Source of the DNA: a virus
Taxonomy: Duplodnaviria > Heunggongvirae > Uroviricota > Caudoviricetes
Length of the DNA: 27,516 nucleotides
Virus record (IMG/VR): IMGVR_UViG_2563366923_000009
Strand: one strand, 5' to 3'
Under the pieces are notes generated by a model that worked only from the letters and a program-made list of their open reading frames with translations, ran no database searches and was not told the DNA's origin. Numbering within the stretch: position 1 is the first letter of the stretch; each line of letters starts with the position of its first letter. A program made the translations under genes and the position numbers. This document shows, piece by piece, positions 3,309-21,990 of the stretch.

Positions 3309-3884
3309 CTACGGCAGTGCTGGCCATTCAATATCCTGTGCAGTTGACGTATCAACACGGTTCAGCAATACCCGATACTTTTTCCATGCTTCCAGCAACG
3401 AGATTTCTTCCTCCGTTGCAATTTCCAGATCTGCAGCATCCTGAAGCGGCGCAATATGCTCACTGGCTACCTGCATCAGGTTGTTTTTTGTTTCTTCCGC
3501 CTCCCGGATCCGGAACAGTTTTTCTGCTTCCGTATCCTTCACCCAGGCTGTGCCGTTCCACTTCTGAAACTCCCCTTCCGGCGATAACCAGGTAACATTT
3601 TCCGGTAACGGACCGAGTTCAGAAATAAATAACGCGTCGCCGGAAGCCACGTCATAAACCGTTTTACCCCGATGATCTTCAACGAGATGCCACGATGACT
3701 CATCACTGTTGAAAACAGCCACGAAGCCAGCCGGAATATCTGGCGGTGCAATATCGGTACTGTTTGCTGGCAGACCTGTATGAGGCGGAATATATGCATC
3801 ACCTTCACCAATAAATTCATTAGTTCCGGCCAGCAGATTATAAATTTTTATGGTCCGTGGTTGTTCACTCATTCTGAATGCCAT
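3309..3884 (-). CDS. tfaQ: Tail fiber assembly protein (Tfa)
   Basis: 191 aa, start overlaps the stop of the upstream stf-like ORF; Tfa-like sequence, directly 3' of the tail-fiber C-terminal domain. Confidence 0.85.
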
Positions 3885-4897
3885 TATGCAAGCCTCACAA
3901 TATAGTTAAATGCGATGTTTTTGACGGTGTTTTCCGCGTTACCAGCAGCGTTAACGGTGATGGTGTGTCCATGTGAACCAATCGCAACGGAGTGCGTATG
4001 AGCACCAATACCGACAGTATGCGCGTGTGCACCTGCAGATGCTGCTGTGCCGGACAGTGAGTGGCTATGATTACCATCTGTACTGGTATTAGCTAACCAC
4101 CCCGTAGACATACCTACTGAGCCTTGTACACCCCAGGTATTTTGACCTGAGCTTGTATAACCATATTGATAAGTATCTTTAAAAACACTGGGGTTAAATC
4201 GACGGCCATCTCTATGGCTGTGATTACCAGCTGCATTCGTGCTGCCACTTAAACTATGGGTATGCGCACCAGTGTTATTCGTGGATTTAGTGCCGTAATC
4301 AAACGACGATGTGGTTTTCGTCCCCAAATCCGTACTGGATGCGCTGGCGCTGTGGGTATGCGATTTAATGCCGTCCTGTTCCTGAGACAATACGGCCCGA
4401 CCACTGGCAGGTTTGCCCTTAATCGTCCAGCCACGCATATCCACCTCAACCGGATCGAAGGCTTCACCGGTCATGGTGTATTTGCCCTTAAGCACGGCAG
4501 AAACTGCCTGCATCTCTTCGACCTGAGCAATGGCCAGCTCTTCGTCACGCATGTTCTGCATGATGATGCGACGGCGGCGGTAAGCCGGGTCCGCCAGATT
4601 CTGCGGATCTTCATCCGGCAGGCGACGCAGGGTCATCTGCGGATTCACTTCATGCTTCGGCTTGACATATCCCGGCGTAAATTCAGAGGTGGAGCCGCCA
4701 CGGGAACGGATAACCTCACCGGAAACAATCGGCGAAACGTACAGCGCCATGTTTACCAGTCCCGGAATTTGTGAGAGATAGACTTTCTCCGTGGTGAAGG
4801 GATAGCTCTCACGGAAAAAGAGACGCAGAAACAGCGGATCAAACTTAAATTTCTGCTCATTTGCCGCCAGCAGCTGGGCGGTTGTGTACATCGACAT
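3884..4897 (-). CDS. stfQ: Chimeric ORF: lambda major capsid protein E N-terminal ~154 aa fused in frame to a side-tail-fiber C-terminal domain
   Basis: N-terminus [40 protein letters not shown]...[10 protein letters not shown] matches lambda gpE as recalled; from about nt 4435 the sequence becomes a Gly/Ser/Thr/His-rich HTHS/HSHS repeat domain ending [11 protein letters not shown], typical of Stf C-termini. Start taken at MSMYTT (4897). Confidence 0.75.
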
Positions 4898-4910
4898 AAA
4901 AAAATCCCGT

Positions 4911-4931
4911 AAAAAAAGCCGCACAGGCGGC
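4911..4931 (-). terminator. Hairpin plus T7 run between the Nu1-like gene and the E-stf start
   Basis: Minus strand gccgcctgtgcggc followed by ttttttt; sits immediately upstream of the ATG at 4897. Confidence 0.4.
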
Positions 4932-7248: not shown

Positions 7249-7557
7249 TGCTGGTTCAGAGTTAAAAAAACTATGATTTTTTTCATGATGTTACCGTAGT
7301 ATGTGAGTATCCATCGAATAGACACCAAGCAAAAAAGCTCCCGAAGGAGCCTTCATTTTCACTTTTTTAAATCCAACGACAGACGGCTGGCATTTAAGTA
7401 TTGTGAAATATTATCAAATGTAATCATCATTGATTTACAAAAGATACATTTTGCCCCGAAAGGATTCATGTCAGAAACATCAAAAGATGATGTTCTATAC
7501 TGGGAACCATGACAACACGGGCATCTAAAGTGAATATGGTTTGTAATATTGTCTACC

Positions 7558-7770
7558 TCAAAGCGCCACTACATGAACAGCGGCAGGACCTTTAGGTCCG
7601 TTCTCAATACCAAATTCAACTTCCTGATTCTCAGTTAATGTTTTGAAATCGTTGCTCTGAATTGCTGAGAAATGGACAAACACATCTTTGCTGCCATCTT
7701 TCGGCGTGATGAAACCAAAACCTTTTTCAGGGTTAAACCATTTCACTAAACCAGTCATTTTGTTAGACAT
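7558..7770 (-). CDS. cspI: Cold-shock protein (CspA family)
   Basis: 70 aa with [15 protein letters not shown] and VFVHFSAI motifs (RNP1/RNP2). Confidence 0.9.
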
Positions 7771-8132
7771 AATTATTACCTTTTGAAGAAATTAGCCCTT
7801 GGGCAGAATGGTCCGAAAAAAAATATCAGAGAGAAAAACCAACAAGGAAATCTCAAGAGGTACAAATAATAAAATTATAACAATGACTGCTTCAGATAAA
7901 TTTGTAACAAACCAGAACACCATTAACGCATGATTAACCACCCATAGCAAGGATTACTTTTGTAAAGAAAAACACAGCAATGAAAGAATAGCTTTATTTA
8001 TTAATAAAACGTGTCATTCTGATTAAGACCTTTTATCTTACCCTTAAGATTTCAGGAATTTTGGCTCATGGAAGAGTCCTTTTTATTTAAATTTTACATT
8101 CCGCGATGTAAATGTTCCGATTTAATATTACC

Positions 8133-10160: not shown

Positions 10161-10441
10161 GAGATTGTGGTGCTTTTTGTGGGAGTCATCCACTTACGCA
10201 CTTTGTTTTGCCATGCCAGCAGTTAGCTTCTGCTGTAAAACTATTCATGCAGCAAACCTGCACTTCACCACAATGGTTAGCATACTTTTCCTGATTAAGA
10301 TTTTGCCAAATATGCTAGCCATTGTTTCATGTATTGGACCTCCTTACTTTTTATTAAAGAGATCCAATATTCACTACTCTGTCCGTATCTCTACTCAGGC
10401 ATCAGCCTTCTTCGTTATCGTATACAGACGAGCGATGAATT

Positions 10442-10657
10442 TTAATCAGTAATGATGACATTTGCTGCTGCAGGACCTTTAGCACCACTCTCTATAGAGA
10501 AGGTAACCTTTTGACCTTCAAATAAGGTTCGATAATTATCATTCTGAATCGCAGAAAAATGCACAAACACATCTTTACTACCATCAACAGGAGAAATAAA
10601 GCCGAAACCTTTATCAGCGTTAAACCATTTTACTAAACCAGTCATTTTATTTGACAT
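10442..10657 (-). CDS. cspB: Cold-shock protein (CspA family)
   Basis: 71 aa, [23 protein letters not shown]...VFVHFSAIQ. Confidence 0.9.
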
Positions 10658-10957
10658 TCTACATTCCTTAACTTGAGCCTTTCGGCATAAATGGTTTGCA
10701 TAACAGAAACGACTTCGTACTTAATTGGAGAGACTCAAAGAAGGAATAAGTGAATAACACCTGAAATGAGAACTGCTTTAGTAAACTACTTCGTATATCG
10801 TCTGTTCTTCAAACCGACGCAATCATTAACGCATAGTTGAACATATGAAGCAATGTTTATTTTAGACATCCAGCCATCTTCAACCCCATCAAAAAACTAT
10901 AGCTTTCTTCAGGAACGTGTGTATAGTGCGCCAAGTTATCAGTATTAAGGAATTTTT

Positions 10958-12357: not shown

Positions 12358-13446
12358 TTACGCCAGTACGCCAATTGCCAGCGCGCGATCGATAAAACGA
12401 AATATCAGCTCCAGTTGGGAGCCATACTTATCTTCAAATGCCACTGTATCCGTATGCAGCTCGTTGTGATGCTTTCTGCACAAAGGCAACACAAAGAGAT
12501 CATGTGCTTTTGTTCCCATTCCGCCCTGCCCGTGACCAATCAGATGATGCGGATCGTCGGCTGGCATACCGCAGCAAGCACACGGCTGTGTCTTAACCCA
12601 ACGTGTGTATTTCTCCTTAACCCAGCGGCGACGTTTAGGCAGCTTCATGAAAGATTCCGGAGACTCTGGATCAACGGTGATGCTTACCACCGTCTTTTCC
12701 TGTGGTGATTTTTGTTGCTGGTGGGCGTAAGGCAACGGTGCAAGATTTTTTGTGCGTTGTTTCAATATGCTGGTGGCGGTCTGCTCTCCCGGTACGATGT
12801 CGCTTTCGCGGTACACCGAGCAGATTTTTTCCGCTGGTAATCCCAGCGAACGACGCGATACAGCCTCAGGTAGTGCATCCACCACCTGATTGCAGACCGC
12901 CCACCAGGATAATTCAGCCAAAGATAATTCCCGCTCCTGCGTACCGCTTATTGCGTGACGGATGACGTCAATCACCCATGCTGTCAGATTTTGTTGAGCA
13001 AGCAGCTCCAGTGATTCCGATGTCTGGTCACGCAGTTGGTTGTCGCAGTGCCAGCACAACACCATTGCGCCGGTACCATAACGGTGAATGACTGTTTCAG
13101 TGTGATGGTAATCGCCATTAGGCCACTGGCAGGATGTAACATGACGTAATAGCCAGTCGGACAATGCGCCAACGCCGCCAGCAGCACGAATCACCCGTTC
13201 GTTACTAAAAAACGGCAGCAATGTTTTGTCTTCCGCCAGCGGCTGGCGAACGGCAGGAACGACTCCGGATGGCAGATTACGCATGCTTTTTGGTTCCGGT
13301 TCCACCAGCACTCGAGGATTATGAAATATCTGTATGGATTCACGGCCCGGCTTAAGGACCACCAGCCCAAGCTCAGGCACCAGAACAGGTCTAAGTAATA
13401 CCCGCACGTTACCTCCAGAACCGTTGCAGGAAAGTGCGGGACGCAC
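12358..13446 (-). CDS. ydfU: DUF968-type protein with C-terminal HNH-like Cys/His motif (nin-region protein)
   Basis: C-terminus CACCGMPADDPHHLIGHGQGGMGTKAHDLFVLPLCRKHHNELH; start ambiguous (ATG at 13446 or GTG at 13407, just after the stop of the upstream 92-aa ORF). Confidence 0.7.
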   Translation of the reverse strand: MRPALSCNGSGGNVRVLLRPVLVPELGLVVLKPGRESIQIFHNPRVLVEPEPKSMRNLPSGVVPAVRQPLAEDKTLLPFFSNERVIRAAGGVGALSDWLLRHVTSCQWPNGDYHHTETVIHRYGTGAMVLCWHCDNQLRDQTSESLELLAQQNLTAWVIDVIRHAISGTQERELSLAELSWWAVCNQVVDALPEAVSRRSLGLPAEKICSVYRESDIVPGEQTATSILKQRTKNLAPLPYAHQQQKSPQEKTVVSITVDPESPESFMKLPKRRRWVKEKYTRWVKTQPCACCGMPADDPHHLIGHGQGGMGTKAHDLFVLPLCRKHHNELHTDTVAFEDKYGSQLELIFRFIDRALAIGVLA

Positions 13447-13687
13447 GTGGTGGGCGTTCGGAATAAGGCAGCCTGACAGAGATTATCCAGTGCCGATAGT
13501 CGAGACTGAGAGCTTTCTTAACCTCGAACCCGCGCCTGCGGTAAGAATGAATCAGCCATTCGGCCTGTTCTGCAGTGCATGGAGGGTGCTGGAACCATTC
13601 AGACTTGAATGCGTGAGAATACCGCCCGTGCGTGCAGGCAAGAACGGGCGAATTATCAGAATTGTAATATTTTGCGTTGCGTGCCAT
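13409..13687 (-). CDS. Hypothetical protein (92 aa), possibly a frame-shifted N-terminal part of the downstream gene
   Basis: ORF with protein-like composition ending 1 nt before a possible GTG start of ydfU. Confidence 0.35.
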   Translation of the reverse strand: MARNAKYYNSDNSPVLACTHGRYSHAFKSEWFQHPPCTAEQAEWLIHSYRRRGFEVKKALSLDYRHWIISVRLPYSERPPRASRTFLQRFWR

Positions 13688-13753
13688 CGGTTTTCTCCGG
13701 TGGCACGGTGTTACTCAGCGGGAGTTCAGCCCCGCGCAAGATTGTAGATGAGT

Positions 13754-14005
13754 TTATTCTCCTGAAAAAGCAGAAAAGCCAGCTTTTATTCCGATCTCTT
13801 TCAATGCCTGTAATGAAGTGACAAACTCACCTTCGCGCAAGATAAATCCGTCCGTGACCCGAGCATCCACAAAATTAATTAACGCAGCCCCATTCTTTCG
13901 CAAACACATAATGCGGTAATGACTAACAAGATTTCCATTTTCAACGCACACAGCATAGAGGCCATCTTCACAAAAAATTTTACGCAGTTCTTCGATGTTC
14001 ATCAT
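13754..14005 (-). CDS. rem: Small prophage protein (83 aa)
   Basis: 83-aa ORF between ydfU and hokD; length and position match Qin rem as recalled. Confidence 0.5.
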   Translation of the reverse strand: MMNIEELRKIFCEDGLYAVCVENGNLVSHYRIMCLRKNGAALINFVDARVTDGFILREGEFVTSLQALKEIGIKAGFSAFSGE

Positions 14006-14120
14006 CAGAATCCTTCCGGATAATTAGCTCTCCCCTTTAAGGGACCATCCCTCTTATCCCTGCGCGCTACTTAAGTATTTTTGATTCTATTCCGGCACCG
14101 TCCAGAACTTCAAACGCGTT

Positions 14121-14153
14121 GAAAATAAAAACAAAAACCCGCCGAAGCGGGTT
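14121..14153 (-). terminator. Intrinsic terminator of the relB-relE-hokD operon
   Basis: Minus strand aacccgcttcggcgggtt followed by tttgtttttatttt, about 70 nt downstream of hokD. Confidence 0.65.
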
Positions 14154-14221
14154 AAGTGCGGGTGCGTTGAGGATGCCTGCCACATCAGAGGTGGCGAGGG
14201 ATTTCTCCCCCGCCGGGTCTC

Positions 14222-14377
14222 TTACTCCTCAGGTTCGTAAGCTGTGAAGACAGCGACCTCCGTCTGGCCGGTTCGGATTCGTACCTCGCAGAGGTCTTTC
14301 CTCGTTACCAGTGCCGTCACTATGACGGTTAAACAGATGACGATCAGGGCGATTAACATCGCCTTTTGCTGCTTCAT
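14222..14377 (-). CDS. hokD: Hok-family membrane toxin (51 aa)
   Basis: Not in the ORF track; hand translation MKQQKAMLIALIVICLTVIVTALVTRKDLCEVRIRTGQTEVAVFTAYEPEE, the canonical Hok TM helix plus periplasmic tail. Confidence 0.85.
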   Translation of the reverse strand: MKQQKAMLIALIVICLTVIVTALVTRKDLCEVRIRTGQTEVAVFTAYEPEE

Positions 14378-14448
14378 AGCCTGCTTCTCCTGTCAACGCA
14401 AAGCAGAAGTGTCACCTTCGGTGCGAAACAGAGATGTCATGCTTTGGT

Positions 14449-14736
14449 TCAGAGAATGCGTTTGACCGCCTCGCTATATACTTCCGAGCGTTCTCTTTTC
14501 CCAACAGAAATCACGAAAACGACAACTTTCTCGTCTATAACCTGGTATACAAGGCGATAGCCTGAAGACCGGAGCTTAATCTTGTAACAATCAGGCATAC
14601 CACGGAGCTTGTTTGCTTCAATCCGGGGTGACTCAAGTACTTCAACCAGCTTCTTTTTCAACTGTTCACGTACCGTCGAGCCCAGCTTTCGCCATTCCTT
14701 TAGTGCCCGCTCGTCAAAATCCAGAAAATACGCCAT
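14449..14736 (-). CDS. relE: RelE mRNA interferase toxin
   Basis: 95 aa, MAYFLDFDERALKEWRKLG...RLVYQVIDEKVVVFVISVGKRERSEVY. Confidence 0.95.
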   Translation of the reverse strand: MAYFLDFDERALKEWRKLGSTVREQLKKKLVEVLESPRIEANKLRGMPDCYKIKLRSSGYRLVYQVIDEKVVVFVISVGKRERSEVYSEAVKRIL

Positions 14737-14975
14737 CAGAGTTCATCCAGCGTCACACGTACTGGCTTAGGATTACGAAGCCGTTCTTTCACTATCTCCA
14801 CAAGTTCAGCATCTTCATCACTCAGGAGTGTCTGTTTGAACGGCAAGCGTTCATTGTCAGCGATATACTCGAGCATGAGACGAAGCGCTTCAGAAGGAGT
14901 TACACCCATTTTTTCAAGCGCGGCGTAAGAACGCGCTTTAAGTTCATCGTCAATACGCAGGTTAATGCTACCCAT
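14736..14975 (-). CDS. relB: RelB antitoxin (RHH)
   Basis: 79 aa, MGSINLRIDDELKARSYAALEKMGVTPSEALRLMLEYIADNERLPF; stop overlaps the relE start. Confidence 0.95.
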   Translation of the reverse strand: MGSINLRIDDELKARSYAALEKMGVTPSEALRLMLEYIADNERLPFKQTLLSDEDAELVEIVKERLRNPKPVRVTLDEL

Positions 14976-14986
14976 GTCTTACACCT

Positions 14987-15012
14987 CTTGTAATTACAAA
15001 TGTCATTACAAG
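14987..15012 (-). promoter_or_regulatory. relBE operator/promoter (relO-like palindromes)
   Basis: cttgtaattacaaatgtcattacaag, two overlapping TTGTAAT/ATTACAA inverted repeats 12 nt upstream of the relB ATG. Confidence 0.7.
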
Positions 15013-15305
15013 TATCGCACTACAACATGCTTAGGGCAAGTCACGAAGGAAGTCAGAAAGTAGTCGTAAGAACGGTGATCACTGTCCGCTTTGTGCCAGG
15101 AGCAGCCATTGCTAAGTCCATCCTGTATTGTGCAGGTCAGCTCGTTTTTAAAGAGTCCGGCCATCATCTTACTGGTACAGACACCATATACTTTGTGACG
15201 GTCAGGCTACATATGCACAACTCAACTTATTCATCTATTTTTTGCTTTAGCATGTCAGTGTTGCTTTCTCGTCGGCGGGTGAGCGGTGACCTGACCTGTC
15301 GATAA
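15000..15305 (+). CDS. Questionable 101-aa ORF (ydfV-like by length and position)
   Basis: ORF-track ORF overlapping the relBE operator region; atypical composition; retained only because a 101-aa ydfV is recalled at this position in Qin. Confidence 0.25.
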   Translation: MSLQVSHYNMLRASHEGSQKVVVRTVITVRFVPGAAIAKSILYCAGQLVFKESGHHLTGTDTIYFVTVRLHMHNSTYSSIFCFSMSVLLSRRRVSGDLTCR

Positions 15306-15457
15306 AGGAACGTAACACGTTTTATGCAACACCCGCATGCGGCAGAAAATTATTGCCGAACGTTTACCCCTGTCAACAAGCTTTACTTTCTGAGGCGCGC
15401 CAGCCCGCGAGGAAAACAATCTGAACATCAAACAATTAATGACACAAGAAATACGAT

Positions 15458-15484
15458 TAAAGATTTTTTTGTGCATGCCGATAG
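15458..15484 (+). promoter_or_regulatory. Sigma-28 (FliA) class 3 flagellar promoter
   Basis: TAAAGATT, 11-nt spacer, GCCGATAG versus consensus TAAAGTTT-N11-GCCGATAA, about 25 nt upstream of flxA. Confidence 0.7.
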
Positions 15485-15507
15485 TGCTTTTTTAAAAGGA
15501 GAAATCT

Positions 15508-15840
15508 ATGTCTGTCACAATTCAGGGAAATACCTCAACCGTTATTTCAAACAACTCCGCCCCGGAAGGAACATCAGAAATAGCCAAAATCACAAGACAA
15601 ATTCAGGTGCTGACTGAAAAGCTTGGGAAAATCTCATCGGAAGAGGGGATGACGACACAGCAGAAAAAAGAAATGGCTGCATTGGTACAGAAGCAAATTG
15701 AAAGCCTCTGGGCTCAACTGGAGCAGTTGTTAAGGCAGCAGGCAGAGAAAAAGAATGAAGACGCGACAGTTCAGCCTGATAAAAAAGAAGAGAAAAAAGA
15801 CGATACAAATACCGCTGGCACCATTGATATTTACGTCTAA
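15508..15840 (+). CDS. flxA: FlxA, FliA-regulated protein
   Basis: 110 aa, MSVTIQGNTSTVISNNSAPEG...QIQVLTEKL...; coiled-coil, Lys/Glu-rich C-terminus. Confidence 0.9.
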   Translation: MSVTIQGNTSTVISNNSAPEGTSEIAKITRQIQVLTEKLGKISSEEGMTTQQKKEMAALVQKQIESLWAQLEQLLRQQAEKKNEDATVQPDKKEEKKDDTNTAGTIDIYV

Positions 15841-15855
15841 GTGACAGCCGTATTG

Positions 15856-15879
15856 TGGCCCTCATCGGGCCACTTTTCG
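15856..15879 (+). terminator. Intrinsic terminator of flxA
   Basis: gtggccctcatcgggccac followed by ttttc. Confidence 0.65.
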
Positions 15880-16127
15880 CCATCAGCCTTTTCTTTAAAG
15901 ACATATTATCTTTGTATCATTTCTGATAGTTAACATTACAAGATATAAGTAATGGACGCACTCCCAATTAGTCTATTTAAATCGCCACGAGTTTAACTGA
16001 CAACCCATGATCAATTATGAATTGCAACTATTTCTGTAGTCACTTTTGTGGGGACAGTCCACAAAACTGCCAACTTCCGCTTCTTGCTCTTAGCGGACAT
16101 TAGCATAGGCTATTTACCATAACGCCT

Positions 16128-17770
16128 CATTACGCGCACCGCCCAGACTGACTCAGCGCGTTTCTGGCATATCCCCGGTAAAACAAGTAACAAACCACCC
16201 GAAAATGAACACCAGAAACGCGACTTAAGAATCTACCCTATGAATGGATATGCACTCAACCGAATCGATCTTGGTTTCAATCTTTTTTATCGGGATCAGG
16301 CTTCTTTTTAGGTAACTTCGGGGGCTTAACTTGCTGATGACTTTGCGTTCGGCGCGTAAGCCAGGGATGGTCAGCTTTAGGTTTAACATAGTATTTTGAG
16401 CGTAAATCAATACGGGCATTATCCACTCGTTCATGGACACTCTTTTCATCATCCAGTGGTATAGGCTCCGGGCCATCAACATACTTTTCCCAGCCCAGCG
16501 CTTTCCCGTCATACAGAACGTTAATTTCACCGTCAAAGTTCTCGCATACAGTAACAACCGAATGCCTAAGTCGATATCCCCGGCCCTCACTGCGTACCTG
16601 AAACGCACTGCTTTTGTACTGGAAAGTGAGATTTTTAGACAGAACGCGCTTCGCCTGTAGGCTGAAGATATAACCCAGTTCCTCTTCAGAATGGTGCACA
16701 TCAAGATGAGCATTATCAGTAGTACGAGGCGACGTAGCGAACCGGTTGTTATAGGCTTCAATAAAGGTCGGCAACCATGCATTTGCTGTTTCAATATCAC
16801 TGATATTCTGAAGCCGCATTTCTTTGACCAGCCTGTCCTGTAGTGTCTGATTGGCGCGCTCTACCCGCCCTTTTGCCTGCGGGCTGTTGGCATGGATTGG
16901 CTCGATGCCCAGTGTCTTTATCGCACGAGTGAACTGGGTCAGCTCACCTTCCCGCTCTGGGTTATTTACCCTGAATATACTGTGTCTATCAGAGTAGAGA
17001 GCGAGCGGTACGCCATGATCATTAAGGTAACCCCGGAGGGTTTCCATGTAAGCCCGGGTTGTTTCAGCAGGCACAAAACGCAACGCCATCAACGCACTGG
17101 TGGCATCATCAATGAAAACGATCAGTGTACATCTGGGGCCTCGATTTTCAAACCAGTCATGAGGTGAGCCATCAATCTGGATCAGTTCACCGTAAGATGG
17201 TCGTCGCATGCGGCGTTGATATATACGGGCAATTTTACGACGGCGTTCACGCCATAACCCCTCTTCTATCATCCACTTTCTGAGAGTTTCAACGGATAAA
17301 GATAAACCGTGTATCTCGCGCAATTTTTCGCACGCAAACGTAGGTCCAAAATCAGCGTAACGGCCTTTGAGGAGTGAAATTACTGTTGCTCTGAATTCAG
17401 TAGAAAAGGAATTATTAGGACGCTTTCCACGTCGGTGGGAAACCAGACCAGAAGGCCCTTCATTTCTATACCGTTGCACCAGACGTTTAACCTGCCGAAT
17501 AGAAATGCCAATGCGTGCCGCAGCTTGTTCCTGAATAATCTGAAGTCGGTGGAGTTCCTTATGACTCATCGTAACAGTCTCTTTGATCATGAAAAATCCC
17601 CCAGAGAATTGTCTGGGGACATTTTAGAATGGTTCAAAGGGGACATTACAGCTTGGTGTTAACAATAGCCTGCTTCTCCGTGCCTTTCGGCACGTAAGAG
17701 GCTAACCTACATGTGTCTAGCATGAAATTGGCCTCAGATTAATGTTAAGCGTCTTGCAGGACGCGTAATG
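16128..17770 (-). mobile_element. Insertion sequence carrying an rve-type DDE transposase (ISNCY/IS481-like); boundaries approximate
   Basis: Intact transposase ORF; imperfect inverted match CATTACGCG(c/t)..C.GC..AGAC at 16128.. and on the reverse complement of 17762..17770; no clean target duplication identified. Confidence 0.35.
16277..17590 (-). CDS. DDE transposase with N-terminal HTH and integrase-core (rve) domain
   Basis: 437 aa; HTH region IGISIRQVKRLVQRY, catalytic-core-like segments LIQIDGSPHDWF, CTLIVFIDDATS, ANSPQAKGRVERAN (D, D, E-type spacing); Lys/Pro-rich C-terminal tail. Confidence 0.85.
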   Translation of the reverse strand: MIKETVTMSHKELHRLQIIQEQAAARIGISIRQVKRLVQRYRNEGPSGLVSHRRGKRPNNSFSTEFRATVISLLKGRYADFGPTFACEKLREIHGLSLSVETLRKWMIEEGLWRERRRKIARIYQRRMRRPSYGELIQIDGSPHDWFENRGPRCTLIVFIDDATSALMALRFVPAETTRAYMETLRGYLNDHGVPLALYSDRHSIFRVNNPEREGELTQFTRAIKTLGIEPIHANSPQAKGRVERANQTLQDRLVKEMRLQNISDIETANAWLPTFIEAYNNRFATSPRTTDNAHLDVHHSEEELGYIFSLQAKRVLSKNLTFQYKSSAFQVRSEGRGYRLRHSVVTVCENFDGEINVLYDGKALGWEKYVDGPEPIPLDDEKSVHERVDNARIDLRSKYYVKPKADHPWLTRRTQSHQQVKPPKLPKKKPDPDKKD

Positions 17771-17924
17771 TTAACTGGGGCTTTTCTCTATCTGCCGTTG
17801 GTGTCCATGCCCGAGGCAGATAGCCTCAAGCACCCGCAGTCATTCTACTTAACTAAGATTTCCCCGCAAACCGTTTTTGTCCAGCACAGTAAATATCCAA
17901 CTAAACCAATGGAGTTCGCTGTAT

Positions 17925-18143
17925 TTACCGCCAGTATTCAATGCACATGACCGCCATGAACACCCCTAAAAAAAGGGCATTTATATATCCAAATATTAAT
18001 ATCAAAACATCAACTTTTTCCATATACCTTGCTGTGAAGATGATGGGCATACATGATGCGAACAACCAGAACGCAACAAACAAAAACTGCAATGCGTTTT
18101 TCATTATTCCTCCTACAATCAATGTGCAATTACATTTAAACAC
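17925..18143 (-). CDS. Hypothetical small membrane protein (2 predicted TM helices)
   Basis: 72-aa ORF in an AT-rich stretch; hydrophobic segments ALQFLFVAFWLFASCMPIIF and VLILIFGYINALFLGVFMAVM; no recognisable family. Confidence 0.3.
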   Translation of the reverse strand: MFKCNCTLIVGGIMKNALQFLFVAFWLFASCMPIIFTARYMEKVDVLILIFGYINALFLGVFMAVMCIEYWR

Positions 18144-18358
18144 ACCTCAATTTGGCCGGACATATAAATATCTAAACCAGAAAAAATCACTTACATAGCG
18201 TTACAAACTCTTTAGTCTAAAGGTTCATCGTAAAACATTCCCCATACTTATCAGTCCGTTCCGCGCCAGGTAGCTCATTGCCTTATCTGGCAACCTGTAA
18301 TCAGGTTTCCGCTTTTTCAGTTGGCTGGTCGTTTAACCGACATAGTTAATCCATTAAT

Positions 18359-18646
18359 CTAGTTGCCGGATGTTGGTGGATTTTCGCGTTTTAGTTGTTC
18401 ATAAAAGTGCACAGCTTTAACCAGTTCTTCTGATGTAACTGGGACTGGTGAGGCAGTGAATAAGGCCTGAATTTGATAGTTCGGCCTGTCGTTACAATCC
18501 TCTTTTTTCGGTACATATTTCCAGTCACCAGACCACTACTTCCCCTGAAAGTCCGTAACGCCTTTTTTCACGTAGCGATATCGCCATGCCACTGGTTTTG
18601 CTTGCCCCGCCGTTTCATGCCCTTCCTGATAATTAATCTCGCTCAT
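18359..18646 (-). pseudogene. Decayed early-region gene: 96-codon frame interrupted by a single in-frame TAG at 18536..18538
   Basis: Hand translation: MSEINYQEGHETAGQAKPVAWRYRYVKKGVTDFQGK, TAG, WSGDWKYVPKKEDCNDRPNYQIQALFTASPVPVTSEELVKAVHFYEQLKRENPPTSGN; one stop in 96 codons is fewer than expected by chance. Confidence 0.35.
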
Positions 18647-19256
18647 TCATCGCCCCACTCATCACAATATGCTTCGACCGGAGTTTTTCCCGCTTCATAG
18701 TCATCACGCTAGGATTCGACATCAGCAGCACTTCCACCGCGTAACTCACCATAGTCCATTAATAGTTCATCCCGCTCTTCAAAACTGATGTTATATTTAG
18801 CTGAACAAAAATCAGCCACTTTGTTCTTCCTCATCGTCTTTTATTTCGTGGTATGAGTAATTGCAGTAGTTAAAGAAAATTTCTTATGCTCCGTCATGAA
18901 TTTCCTCAGGTGTTGCGTCATCGTCCACTTCGAATACATCCTCAAAATCTCCACCAGCTATTCCCGTTTCAATAATAATTTTGAACTTTCGCATTTCACT
19001 ACCGCCCTTTCGGGCGGCCTCCTGATGTTCTGAGGGTGCAGAAATCCATCCGGTTAAGGATTAAATTTTATTTACAGAACTGAATTTAATTATTCAGATA
19101 TACGTATCTGTAGCCTTACGAATCTACTCACTGGATGCCTCTTTCATAAAAATAATCCAGTGGGTTTTATCGTTTTTTCCCTGTTCGTTGACAGATAACA
19201 GGTTTTCTGTCTGTCAGTGCCAGAATCTGGCTTACCGGTATTTGCGTTTCATTCCA

Positions 19257-19613
19257 TTAAAAAATCAGAACGCCGTGCGGCCTCAACACCCGAAAGGCTT
19301 CTTTAAATCTCTGTCGCGAATCATCACGCCAGGCATCTTTATTCAGCCGTCCATATTTCTTTCCCATCCAGGCGTTATCACCAACACTCTCAAGATGCGG
19401 AGGGTCTAATACAACCATCGAAAAAGATGCGTCTGCAAATGATAATGCACGAAAATCTGCGATAATGTCAGGGCTGATAATCAAGCGTCTCCCATTGCGT
19501 AATGTGTATCCTTCTTTTCTGATATCGCTGAATATCGCCCGTTCGTCAGACTTATCGAACCAGAACATGCGGCTGCCACAGCACATATCAAGAATGGTTG
19601 CCGGTGCACTCAC
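19257..19613 (-). CDS. Amino-methyltransferase-like protein (motif I then DPPH motif IV), probably truncated
   Basis: 118 aa; ILDMCCGSR (SAM-binding motif I-like) at residues 7-15 and VVLDPPH (D/N-PP-Y/F/H catalytic motif) at 67-73, followed by LRPHGVLIF; too short for a complete methyltransferase. Confidence 0.5.
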   Translation of the reverse strand: MSAPATILDMCCGSRMFWFDKSDERAIFSDIRKEGYTLRNGRRLIISPDIIADFRALSFADASFSMVVLDPPHLESVGDNAWMGKKYGRLNKDAWRDDSRQRFKEAFRVLRPHGVLIF

Positions 19614-19906
19614 TGCGCCACGTCCTGAAAATTACCCTGATAGAAAGCCAGTATGCGCTGCATAACTTCGCTCTTCCGGCACTCGCGACAGATTATGTTT
19701 AGGCGACTGTCGTAGCGACGTATTTCTCCGTCAGGTGATGACCAGATAAGGTCCGGATCAACCACAGCAGGTTTCTTCACCTTTGCCCTCGAGAGTTTTT
19801 TGCGGGCGTTTTGCCAGTCCTTACGCGCCTGTTCAGAGGGGAATAACCCGTAGCCGGAGTTGTATACATCGCCACTGGCTACCAGCTCTCTGGCAAGAAC
19901 GCTCAT
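19610..19906 (-). CDS. Hypothetical protein (98 aa), translationally coupled to neighbours
   Basis: Start overlaps the upstream stop by 1 nt; its stop overlaps the methyltransferase-like start. Confidence 0.45.
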   Translation of the reverse strand: MSVLARELVASGDVYNSGYGLFPSEQARKDWQNARKKLSRAKVKKPAVVDPDLIWSSPDGEIRRYDSRLNIICRECRKSEVMQRILAFYQGNFQDVAQ

Positions 19907-20190
19907 CAGATAGCCTCCATAATCGCAGGCACTAGCGCCGTGAACTTTTCACGCTTATCCCTGGTGTCGATAGCCTTCCAGCGTTCGAATATCTTCACTC
20001 GATTAACACCAAGCGCTCGCTGATCAACCGCGCCACCTTCATCTGTGACACGCTGAACATCGATGTTCGGGCGCTCTTTCAAAGCCCAGAATGCTTCAGT
20101 GATTAATATCGTCGCCTGCTCCTGTGTCATTCCTGGTCGACATATCCAGGCATCCAGAGCCTCACGAGCCTGTTCAGGAGTGATTTTCAT
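19906..20190 (-). CDS. Hypothetical protein (94 aa) immediately downstream of dicC
   Basis: ORF overlaps the dicC 3' end; occupies the position of cII/replication genes in lambdoid phages; no recognisable family. Confidence 0.45.
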   Translation of the reverse strand: MKITPEQAREALDAWICRPGMTQEQATILITEAFWALKERPNIDVQRVTDEGGAVDQRALGVNRVKIFERWKAIDTRDKREKFTALVPAIMEAI

Positions 20191-20404
20191 TGTTCAACCG
20201 CCCCGCCCGCTTCGTCTTACGATATTCATCATAAACTTTGGGATCATACTGAAGCTCCCCGCCAGATGCCTCCTGTAGACGCATCGCGCGACCTTCAGGA
20301 ACCAGTATCCCCCAAGCAGCAACACTTGCCAGCCTCACTCCTGCGGCATTGGCAAGCTTTGTTTTGCTGCCAAAAAAAGTAATTGCGTCAACTTTAAGCA
20401 TCAA
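20174..20404 (-). CDS. dicC: Cro-like regulator (YdaS/DicC family)
   Basis: 76 aa, divergent from dicA across an operator-containing intergenic region. Confidence 0.85.
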   Translation of the reverse strand: MMLKVDAITFFGSKTKLANAAGVRLASVAAWGILVPEGRAMRLQEASGGELQYDPKVYDEYRKTKRAGRLNNENHS

Positions 20405-20413
20405 ATCCCCCTC

Positions 20414-20432
20414 TTGTTAGACTTTTCTAACA
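20414..20432. promoter_or_regulatory. DicA-type operator palindrome in the dicA-dicC intergenic region
   Basis: TTGTTAGA cttt TCTAACA inverted repeat. Confidence 0.65.
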
Positions 20433-20481
20433 TTATTGTGCGCGGGATACCTAAGTCAAGAAAAATTAGAATTACCTAACT

Positions 20482-20889
20482 ATGGATACAAGAACCCTGG
20501 GCCAGCGAGTTCTGGCGCGACGAAAAGAATTACGCTTAACACAACGAGAAGCCGCGCGCCTCGCTGGAGTTGCTCACGTCACAATTTCACAATGGGAAAG
20601 AGACGAAACCCAGCCAGTCGGAAAACGATTGTTTGCTTTAGCGGATGCTCTGAAGTGCTCACCTACATGGCTAATGTTTGGTGACGAAGACAAGGCACCA
20701 GTGCCTGCACAAGAACTTCATGTGGAAACAGAGCTAACTCCCAACCACAAAGAATTGATCGAATTATTCGATGCTCTTCCATCTTCCGAGCAGGAAGCCT
20801 TGCTGTCTGAAATGCGCGCAAGAGTAGAAAACTTCAACAAACTCTTCGAAGAAATGCTTAAAGCGCGTAAAAATAAATCAATAAAATAA
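20482..20889 (+). CDS. dicA: XRE-family HTH repressor (cI/C2-like)
   Basis: 135 aa, LGQRVLARRKELRLTQREAARLAGVAHVTISQWER HTH. Confidence 0.95.
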   Translation: MDTRTLGQRVLARRKELRLTQREAARLAGVAHVTISQWERDETQPVGKRLFALADALKCSPTWLMFGDEDKAPVPAQELHVETELTPNHKELIELFDALPSSEQEALLSEMRARVENFNKLFEEMLKARKNKSIK

Positions 20890-21932: not shown

Positions 21933-21990
21933 TTTCTGGTGACGTTTGGCGGTATCAGTTTTACTCCGTGACTGCTCTGCCGCCCTTTTT
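21933..21990 (+). ncRNA. dicF: DicF small regulatory RNA (ftsZ-targeting), including its terminator hairpin
   Basis: TTTCTGGTGACGTTTGGCGGTATCAGTTTTACTCCGTGACTGCTCTGCCGCCCTTTTT matches the DicF sequence as recalled; located between ydfC and dicB. Confidence 0.85.

Follow-up and report, generated by a model that had tools for sequence, protein, structure and literature searches.

Why does the gene cluster downstream of dicC carry no replication initiator, and does the short open reading frame (ORF) at its far end encode a working methyltransferase? The window considered here is the whole 27,516-nucleotide stretch of viral DNA held as record IMGVR_UViG_2563366923_000009, and the cluster occupies positions 19257-20404 of its minus strand. 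Four ORFs (dicC, followed by ORFs of 94, 98 and 118 aa) overlap at their stop and start codons by 17 nt, by 1 nt (TGATG) and by 4 nt (GTGA), respectively. The original prediction had described these ORFs and overlaps, and every one of them was found as it said; it had gone on to propose that the last ORF is either a minimal methyltransferase or a disrupted remnant. Taken together, the data presented below favour, with a probability of about 0.93, a decayed operon of the Qin prophage that has lost its initiator through a deletion and ends in a dead methyltransferase pseudogene.

The cassette and its regulators

As judged from its sequence, the cassette is a worn-down early-right operon from the Cro side of Qin, a known cryptic lambdoid prophage of Escherichia coli. 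The first gene, dicC (20174-20404, minus strand), starts at a TTG codon at 20404 or an ATG codon at 20401 and encodes an apparently intact Cro-like regulator, which matches Pfam P22_Cro (5e-12) and passes the NCBIfam DicC model NF007282 with 165.7 bits against a cut-off of 130. Adjoining it in divergent orientation is dicA (20482-20889, plus strand), a gene for a CI-like repressor, as judged from a Pfam HTH_3 match (1.5e-14) and from the dicA annotation of its homologue in related records. A promoter-like site upstream of dicC (20432-20459, minus strand), the equivalent of lambda PR, comprises TTGACT, a 16-nt spacer and AATAAT, and in a consensus scan fits at 10 of 12 positions, which is a consensus match only. 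In K-12, dicC is reported to lie in an operon with ydfX and to be repressed by DicA (PMC11430063). Both this candidate promoter and the K-12 dicC-ydfX operon bear out the earlier proposal that the four ORFs form one operon driven from the Cro-like side of the switch. Within this operon DicC would be the sole gene product that still functions, and the 94-aa, 98-aa and 118-aa fragments would, at most, be passively co-transcribed from the dicC promoter under DicA repression.

In annotated, intact copies of Qin the gene order is dicC, a gene for a 173-aa YdaT-family CII-like protein, one for a 321-aa O-like initiator, one for a 140-aa DUF977 protein, and the methyltransferase gene. The overlap of dicC with the YdaT-like gene and that of the DUF977 gene with the methyltransferase gene are both native, the same overlaps being present in the intact copies.

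A deletion has removed the replication initiator

Alignment of the window with L001, a Qin locus in which the 173-aa gene is intact, located the missing DNA. Window positions 13100-19912 correspond to L001 1-6813 (99.94% identical), and the match picks up again 1,346 bp further on, where window positions 19909-20312 correspond to L001 8160-8562. The two matching blocks overlap by 4 bp at 19909-19912, which mark the deletion junction and its 4-bp microhomology (GATA on the plus strand, TATC on the coding strand). Relative to intact Qin, approximately 1,346 bp are absent at this point, and with them the C-terminus of the YdaT-like protein, the entire 321-aa O-like protein, the iterons and codons 1-42 of the DUF977 gene. 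The deleted 321-aa protein is an O-like replication initiator as judged from its match to PHROG 391 (1e-91), with DnaD-like loader profiles also matched, and four to six 23-nt iterons lie inside its gene.

Neither a replication initiator nor iterons are present in 19257-20404, as the original prediction had observed, and the reason is that the deletion of ~1,346 bp removed both; the gap is a loss and not a special architecture of the cassette. Mechanistically, a deletion mediated by the TATC microhomology fused the CII-like gene at codon 94 with the DUF977 gene at codon 42, at the cost of initiator and origin. The 94-aa ORF therefore runs out of frame into DUF977 DNA and ends at a TGA there, and the 1-nt overlap between the 94-aa and 98-aa ORFs is an accidental by-product of the event. 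Evolved coupling does not extend to all three overlaps, since this TGATG was made by the deletion junction; the tight 94/98 coupling that had been taken for operon structure is a scar. Owing to the loss of its initiator the prophage is presumably incapable of replication. None of 5,426 complete E. coli genomes in RefSeq has the junction of this window. Elsewhere it occurs on approximately 109 contigs, strain KTE233 being one carrier.

The 94-aa and 98-aa ORFs are deletion stumps

The 94-aa ORF (19906-20190, minus strand) is the equivalent of ydfX and agrees with the intact L001 gene through residue 94, thus representing residues 1-94 of 173. It matches PHROG 163, ‘CII-like transcriptional activator’, at 4e-24 over profile positions 10-91 of 168. 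With Pfam YdaT_toxin (PF06254) it scores 19.2 bits, just below the cut-off of 21, as the stump covers no more than the beginning of the profile. The profile evidence, together with its place immediately behind a Cro-like gene, identifies it as a member of the YdaT family. It is not a complete one with a C-terminal oligomerisation helix, residues 95-173 of the intact Qin protein being absent. Its product is 98% identical to K-12 YdfX and is the same gene product except for the last residues. The earlier view that the content of this cassette lies outside the K-12 Qin map consequently holds for the DUF977 and methyltransferase DNA, which MG1655 lacks, and fails for the 94-aa ORF.

YdaT of the Rac prophage is a CII analogue with an N-terminal, DNA-binding HTH domain (H56, R57) and a C-terminal oligomerisation helix around L107/A110, and the full-length protein is toxic on expression (PMC11879457). 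By analogy, the 94-aa stump probably keeps the DNA-binding part and is devoid of the oligomerisation helix, and like K-12 YdfX it could have some residual activity. A PDB sequence search with the Qin YdaT-like protein matched no solved structure, the YdaT structures included, and its domain boundary is therefore placed by analogy only.

These considerations raise the question of whether the CII-like stump, and perhaps the DUF977 stump as well, is made from the dicC promoter and has a regulatory or dominant-negative role. Such a role would account for the persistence of stumps of this kind in K-12 and elsewhere. It is in keeping with the near identity to YdfX, a reported co-transcript of dicC in K-12 (PMC11430063), and with the position of the YdaT HTH in the retained part of the protein; moreover, the toxicity of full-length YdaT means that truncation could be favoured (PMC11879457). 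Nevertheless, we consider it unlikely, as YdfX has no known function (PMC11430063, PMC11879457) and the C-terminal tails vary over ~24 alleles from 0 to ~70 unrelated residues, which argues against selection on the stump product.

The 98-aa ORF (19610-19906, minus strand) begins at the internal Met43 of the DUF977 (Ren-like) protein and comprises residues 43-140 of 140, the N-terminal 42 residues having been deleted, as judged from the L001 alignment. It matches Pfam DUF977 (PF06163) above the gathering score (8.5e-17, 61.9 bits, cut-off 22.1), covering profile positions 48-134 of 134 only, and PHROG 142, ‘Ren-like exclusion protein’, at 5.5e-27. The four nucleotides GTGA at 19610-19613 are common to this ORF and the 118-aa ORF. 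In intact copies DUF977 is encoded by a separate 140-aa gene with an identical 4-nt overlap with the methyltransferase gene.

The methyltransferase gene carries fixed lesions at its 3′ end

The 118-aa ORF (19257-19613, minus strand) corresponds to the first 118 codons of a class I SAM-dependent methyltransferase pseudogene of ~162 aa (19124-19613, minus strand), which belongs to the PHROG 954 family. Once its frame is repaired, the pseudogene is 88% identical to the 162-aa homologue P0001 over 100% of the length and matches PHROG 954 at 8e-87, and a Rossmann-type methyltransferase fold is recognised. Motif I (ILDMCCGS, with the invariant D9) occupies residues 7-14 of the 118-aa ORF, and motif IV (DPPH, invariant in the alignments of both close and distant homologues) residues 70-73, after which the ORF runs on for 45 residues and stops, exactly as first described. 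The N-terminus is complete, for full-length homologues of 157-167 aa begin at the same place. What the ORF does not contain is the full-length core of ~150-160 residues, some 44 C-terminal residues being missing, among them the invariant K119, W120 and P138.

Two lesions account for the early stop and for the frame of what follows. In an alignment with an intact copy of the gene from an Stx2c phage, a premature TAA (19257-19259, minus strand) replaces the AAA of the invariant K119. Further downstream, three-frame translations and DNA alignment revealed a +1 frameshift at ~codon 145 (19179-19181, minus strand), GGG standing for the GG of intact genes. A second stop follows the frameshift at 19168-19170, whereas the gene originally ended at the TAG at 19124-19126. 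The remainder of the methyltransferase coding sequence is still recognisable, first in frame beyond the TAA and after that in +1. In addition, six of 62 family-invariant residues are changed in the pseudogene, as against two at most in any real family member.

These lesions are widely shared. None of the 29 Qin-type copies examined is intact: the same TAA recurs in 27, an insertion interrupts another, and the last is a truncated variant. The exact 118-aa product is found on at least 1,000 contigs. Sequencing error, for which the original prediction had advised checking the reads at the overlaps, is ruled out as the source of the TAA and of the frameshift by the occurrence of the same allele in these 27 loci and on these contigs. 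Within the 118-aa ORF region, 3 synonymous and 7 non-synonymous sites are polymorphic, and the density of polymorphic sites is alike in the ORF (10/354) and in the dead tail (4/136). Against this, PGAP treats the 118-aa ORF as an undamaged CDS (WP_001310834.1) across thousands of genomes.

Could the 118-aa product nonetheless be a minimal or unusual working methyltransferase, which the Cro-side operon would express as a moron with an anti-restriction or epigenetic role? Both motif I and DPPH are there, the CDS annotation is widespread, and the start codon overlaps the upstream stop by 4 nt as it does in intact copies. Against these points stand the ~160-aa size of the family and the loss of the last ~44 residues with their invariant positions, the recognisable gene remnant beyond the TAA, the six mutated invariant residues and a neutral substitution pattern, so that we regard a working enzyme as very improbable; the live moron that had been envisaged is dead in all 29 Qin-type copies. 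Even less credit, indeed next to none, is given to the idea that the gene is disrupted at its 5′ end, with the 98-aa ORF as its original N-terminus and a single indel near 19610 sufficient to restore a long gene. The GTGA overlap speaks for it and nothing else does, whereas the 98-aa ORF is a DUF977 fragment, intact copies encode DUF977 separately with that very overlap, and close methyltransferase homologues begin 5-7 residues ahead of motif I. No single polypeptide uniting DUF977 and methyltransferase was seen among 9 sequences examined of the 120 matches listed, and in the longer homologues examined (three of 248-251 aa and one of 279 aa) the extensions are C-terminal. Of the original proposal, then, the disrupted methyltransferase-like remnant survives, and the borrowed N-terminus and the indel near 19610 are replaced by lesions at the 3′ end.

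On the strength of sequence comparison, the 118-aa ORF is best described as a fixed pseudogene and not a minimal enzyme; this form retains motif I and DPPH and may show residual SAM binding. The methyltransferase gene had already died in the Qin lineage, with K119 changed to a stop, a +1 frameshift farther along the gene and changes at six invariant residues, and its remnant is now drifting neutrally.

The upstream deletion end as a probable recurrent hotspot

The upstream end of the deletion probably coincides with a hotspot in the Qin CII-like gene, from which deletions extend to one side only and whose position is fixed to the nucleotide. It maps to coding-strand nt 278-283, at codon 93/94, in the context ...ATGGAGGC|TATCC|GGATTAAT. 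At least 18 junctions, representing independent alleles, were verified at the DNA level, and approximately 24 are counted when protein-only alleles are included; K-12 ydfX is one of these alleles. They arise in different Qin haplotypes, and the deletions extend downstream for 57 nt to 9.6 kb or run into foreign DNA. With few exceptions the junctions display TA, TAT or TATC microhomology. We found no description of a hotspot at codon 93/94.

Several mechanisms may be envisaged. A site-specific DNA break could fix the upstream end, as could a replication stall or template switch at the foot of a small hairpin or at a palindrome (ATCCGGAT); the single-strand fold at the hotspot is mildly stable only (z = -2.2). 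A further possibility is the repeated loss of an insertion element via microhomology-mediated end joining (PMC9943667). If so, occupied alleles would read ...GGAGGCTA(TC), followed by the IS end, with TCCGGATTAAT on the far side. The junction tail of one allele, L022, lies inside an IS66 tnpB gene and not at an IS end. To our knowledge, the junction tails are unlike the ends of the common E. coli elements IS1, IS2, IS3, IS5 and IS629. When E. coli genomes were probed with short single flanks, sequence divergence affected the counts too strongly for split, IS-occupied alleles to be recognised. No second copy of the site motif is present in the prophage, and direct reading of the sequence found no perfect Chi octamer adjoining the hotspot. 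Cas3-type self-targeting, secondary-site recombination by Int or Pin, and Ter-like sites are judged unlikely causes, given the sequence and a fixed end that is defined to the nucleotide. The one-sidedness would be explained if deletions reaching upstream into dicC and dicA were selected against. The hotspot could reflect a mechanism of site-specific breakage or stalling in a genome that has been studied very thoroughly, and may merit specialist attention.

The intact methyltransferase family

The PHROG 954 family consists of phage proteins of ~160 aa that have in common an LDxCCGS motif I, the invariant DPPH, E105, R108, K119-W120 and P138. All 44 close homologues and all 44 distant ones have K119. 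The copy in the window is a pseudogene, unlike the family members. In Pectobacterium phage ZF40 the homologue, gp20, likewise belongs to this early operon and follows the genes for replication. The match to Pfam N6_N4_Mtase reaches 15.6 bits, under the cut-off of 26.7 for this curated DNA methylase model, and weak matches to it occur in 8 of the 44 distant members (best E = 0.0012). PDB searches with P0001 and with a 44-member profile returned generic class I methyltransferases only (best PH0226, 4e-5) and no solved structure of the family, and a literature search on DPPH-motif phage methyltransferases found nothing. A structure model of an intact homologue was of moderate confidence (pLDDT 69). 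The family thus appears to be uncharacterised, and in view of the missing structure and paper and the sub-threshold N6_N4_Mtase score, the designation ‘DNA methyltransferase’ is best regarded as annotation only. The intact ~160-aa DPPH family, very conserved across phages of distant hosts and with neither a solved structure nor a known target, may also merit specialist attention.

Relation to Qin, lambda and Rac

The cassette itself is ordinary, the Qin locus being already known, and the value of the result is mainly corrective, with no new biology from the cassette. The ‘short DPPH methyltransferase’ annotated as a CDS in thousands of E. coli genomes is a pseudogene that has become fixed, the ‘genes’ of 94 and 98 aa are stumps left by a deletion, and the same deletion explains the absent initiator.

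The window has the same neighbours as Qin, namely dicA, dicC, ydfA/B/C, the DicF RNA, dicB, ydfD, an exonuclease gene and intQ on one side, and an ISNCY transposase gene, flxA, relBE, hokD, rem, ydfU and Q on the other, and 6.8 kb of it share 99.9% identity with other Qin copies. Qin of K-12 MG1655 differs in having a larger, 4.8-kb deletion with the same start point, and for this reason is without the DUF977 and methyltransferase remnants, whereas many other strains retain intact YdaT-like, O-like and DUF977 genes; ATCC 8739 is one strain with an intact Qin. When compared with the cro-cII-O-P-ren-nin operon of lambda, both order and roles match those of DicC, the YdaT-family protein, the iteron-bearing O-like gene, DUF977 and nin-type accessory genes, a likeness confined to membership in the same profile families. 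In the Qin operon no P-like helicase-loader gene was seen, and the window retains a truncated cII analogue and no O analogue. The closest parallel to the truncated gene is YdaT of Rac and CP-933P, CII-like proteins once called ‘toxins’, which share PF06254 and the position after Cro; the Qin protein has diverged too far to match their solved structures by sequence, and residues 1-94 alone are left of it here.

The dicC cassette and its setting in prophage Qin

The window is a complete copy of the Escherichia coli cryptic lambdoid prophage Qin. On one flank of the cassette lie dicA, ydfA/B/C, the DicF RNA (Rfam), dicB, ydfD and genes for a large exonuclease, an excisionase and the integrase, and on the opposite flank an ISNCY-type transposase, flxA, relBE, hokD, rem, ydfU (DUF968) and the Q antiterminator gene, continuing with csp genes, lysis genes, Nu1, tail-fibre remnants and pin. 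Matches at the Rfam gathering score comprise an IS009 RNA in the tail-fibre-assembly gene region (3343-3541, minus strand), two cspA-type thermoregulator leaders (7531-7916 and 10426-10818, both minus strand) and DicF (21934-21985, plus strand).

As predicted, four overlapping minus-strand ORFs are present: dicC (20174-20404) shares 17 nt with a 94-aa ORF (19906-20190), which shares 1 nt (TGATG) with a 98-aa ORF (19610-19906), which in turn shares 4 nt (GTGA) with a 118-aa ORF (19257-19613). DicC passes its curated model (165.7 bits against a cut-off of 130), and a strong consensus-type match to a promoter (TTGACT, 16-nt spacer, AATAAT) lies at 20432-20459. The 94-aa ORF matches PHROG 163, ‘CII-like transcriptional activator’ (4e-24), as well as the beginning of the Pfam YdaT_toxin profile; YdaT has been documented as a CII analogue in Rac and CP-933P (PMC11879457). 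The 98-aa ORF matches Pfam DUF977 (8.5e-17), restricted to profile positions 48-134, and also PHROG 142, ‘Ren-like exclusion protein’. The K-12 MG1655 order is dicC-ydfX-ydfW, YdfX being 98% identical to the 94-aa product; other E. coli assemblies, KTE233 for example, encode exactly this 94-aa product.

A deletion joins two gene stumps

Alignment with a related record carrying an intact Qin copy (L001) matched window 13100-19912 to L001 1-6813 with 4 mismatches, and window 19909-20312 to L001 8160-8562. Approximately 1,346 bp are absent from the window relative to L001, and the flanks have 4 bp in common (GATA on the plus strand, TATC on the coding strand). The 94-aa ORF comprises residues 1-94 of the CII-like protein, followed by an out-of-frame TGA within DUF977 DNA, and the 98-aa ORF is DUF977 starting at the internal Met43. 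Because these two ORFs are stumps joined by the deletion, the TGATG overlap is a deletion scar, whereas the dicC/94-aa and 98-aa/118-aa overlaps are native, since they are also found in intact copies.

In the annotated L001 layout, dicC is followed by genes for a 173-aa YdaT-family protein, a 321-aa protein, a 140-aa DUF977 protein and a 118-aa ‘class I SAM-dependent methyltransferase’. A match to PHROG 391 (1e-91) identifies the 321-aa protein as an O-like replication initiator. Within the initiator gene lie four to six tandem 23-nt iterons (L001 7480-7611, within the interval deleted from the window; consensus roughly CATnnGGnCATTTTGAnCnGATG in intact Qin copies), which presumably form the prophage origin. 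The original prediction was correct in seeing neither initiator nor iterons in the cassette; the deletion removed them. It was also correct that K-12 differs in content here: MG1655 lacks the DUF977 and methyltransferase DNA, the Qin deletion there being larger (4.8 kb against approximately 1,346 bp).

L001 is NZ_CP026085.1, labelled DH5alpha, a K-12 derivative, yet the region of YdaT-like, O-like, DUF977 and methyltransferase genes, missing from K-12 MG1655, is intact in it, which casts doubt on the strain label or history. Elsewhere in the window, in the morphogenesis region, a 346-aa ORF (3884-4924, minus strand) contains the N-terminal part of major capsid protein E (Pfam, residues 14-161) and a tail-fibre repeat, and looks like another large deletion fusion.

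The methyltransferase gene is a fixed pseudogene

The 118-aa ORF contains both predicted motifs, ILDMCCGS beginning at residue 7 and DPPH occupying residues 70-73. Reading on in the same frame past its TAA (19257-19259) gives WNETQIPVSQILALTDRKPVICQRTGKKR, and the +1 frame next gives KTHWIIFMKEASSE. The repaired 162-aa sequence has 6,694 homologues, the best being 157-167 aa long and aligned end to end, and matches an intact 162-aa homologue (P0001) with 88% identity at 100% coverage. Relative to an intact Stx2c-phage copy, codon 119 is changed from AAA to TAA and one extra G is present at 19179-19181 (GGG vs GG). All 44 close and all 44 distant family members compared have K119, and six more invariant residues are altered (C39R, D40N, P58S, F69L, R76S and G102R); in a leave-one-out test no genuine family member broke more than two invariant positions.

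Among 189 loci sampled by the CII-like gene flank, 29 carry the gene, and not one of these copies is intact: the stop recurs in 27, an insertion interrupts one, and the last is a truncated variant. Ten haplotypes show 3 synonymous and 7 non-synonymous polymorphic sites, and such sites are as dense in the ORF as in the dead tail. Half of the haplotypes retain the consensus R76 and L99, so these two changes postdate gene death. The gene is a fixed pseudogene, truncated at its C-terminus and with a native N-terminus. The family-level methyltransferase call holds, but the predicted position of the break and the predicted function do not; the TAA and the extra G lie towards the C-terminus. The suggestion that the 98-aa ORF encodes the missing N-terminus is rejected, as the N-terminus is native and the 98-aa ORF is unrelated DUF977.

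In thousands of E. coli genomes PGAP treats the remnant (WP_001310834.1, window 19257-19613) as an intact CDS for a ‘class I SAM-dependent methyltransferase’, an annotation that should be changed to pseudogene. Downstream, at 18500-19000 (minus strand), lie short ORFs whose counterparts in annotated relatives are a DUF7167 pseudogene with an internal stop and a frameshifted hypothetical gene. The whole nin-like stretch is decaying.

The intact DPPH methyltransferase family

The intact family is PHROG 954 (8e-87), and as a family it passes the fold test by which the original prediction could have been refuted. Clustering at 50% identity gave 238 clusters at E ≤ 1e-30. Members occur in phages of Enterobacterales, Gordonia (64% identity), Acinetobacter, Porphyromonas, Streptococcus and Listeria (each about 50%) and Vibrio, and in a haloarchaeal virus (34%); the homologue of Pectobacterium phage ZF40 is an early-operon gene placed behind those for replication. 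Invariant residues are D9, D30, R32, P48, DPPH70-73, E105, R108, K119, W120 and P138. This conservation of a ∼160-aa protein across phages of distant hosts is unusual; many distant members are longer by ∼60 residues at the N-terminus, and some enterobacterial members by ∼90 residues at the C-terminus.

Profile searches reach no further than generic class I enzymes, with weak matches to Trm11 and RsmD-like N-methyltransferases, and the Pfam N6_N4_Mtase match is below threshold; ‘DNA methyltransferase’ is a provisional label. A literature search found no paper on the family, and no solved structure or characterised member was found.

A probable deletion hotspot in the CII-like gene

The starting points of the ydfX junction in K-12 and of the junction in the window lie no more than 2 nt apart, at codon 93/94 of the Qin CII-like gene (window 19909-19912; L001 8160-8163; K-12 locus L003 6358). 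In a protein census many alleles diverge directly after ...AIMEA(I), and the 18 distinct DNA junctions mapped all retain ...ATTATGGAGGC(TA). The junctions jump 57, 1029, 1350, 1410, 2798, 4342, 4801, 4841, 5267, 5332, about 7.8-8.1 kb, 8694 and 9577 nt downstream, except for two that lead into DNA from elsewhere, one inside an IS66 tnpB gene and one in a stretch with an AAA_13 gene. In left-flank-anchored samples 180 of 189 are intact at the site and the other nine all break at nt 280-286, with only four more discontinuities elsewhere in the gene. The hotspot appears nucleotide-precise and one-sided, with independent junctions. Counting protein-only alleles, the at least 18 DNA-verified junctions, K-12 ydfX among them, become ∼24, with downstream ends from 57 nt to 9.6 kb.

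TA, TAT or TATC is almost always common to junction and distal site. The hotspot lies just after a small hairpin predicted from the sequence, and the palindrome ATCCGGAT falls within it. One possible cause is a break or a replication stall specific to the site, with the ends then joined through microhomology. Another is repeated loss of an IS together with an IEE-type deletion of adjacent DNA (PMC9943667). No IS-occupied allele was seen at the hotspot among the alleles examined. An O157-like genome (P0200) appears to have an IS629 insertion at about codon 65 of the same CII-like gene, a position different from the hotspot. A deletion extending upstream into dicC and dicA would derepress dicB and is therefore probably lethal; such lethality could account for the one-sidedness, though not for the nucleotide precision.

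In one allele (L024 4280-5306) the hotspot is followed by unrelated DNA with a 313-aa AAA_13 ATPase gene, Qin sequence resuming near hok, and the point may also serve as a mosaic joint. Several hotspot deletions, including that of K-12, end inside the 437-aa ISNCY-type transposase ORF (16277-17590, minus strand; HTH_28/29/32; PGAP partial in related records), which adjoins a sok antitoxin RNA (17664-17835, minus strand; Rfam RF01794, 104 bits).

A model for the operon

Published work (PMC11430063) reports that DicA represses the dicC promoter. Our best joint reading, held at a probability of about 0.93, is that this promoter would drive dicC plus whatever lies downstream, with DicC the sole intact product of the window allele. 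By analogy with Rac YdaT, from which the domain boundary was taken, the CII-like stump probably retains its DNA-binding domain without the oligomerisation helix. The DUF977 stump lacks its first 42 residues, the methyltransferase is dead, and loss of initiator and iterons removes the presumed prophage origin.

The cassette is an ordinary, already catalogued part of a decaying cryptic prophage and of low interest in itself; only the hotspot and the uncharacterised methyltransferase family merit follow-up. From the intact L001 layout and the identity of the O-like initiator, the operon follows the lambda pattern, with cro-cII-O-ren-nin matched in Qin by dicC, the YdaT-family gene, the O-like initiator, DUF977 and the methyltransferase.
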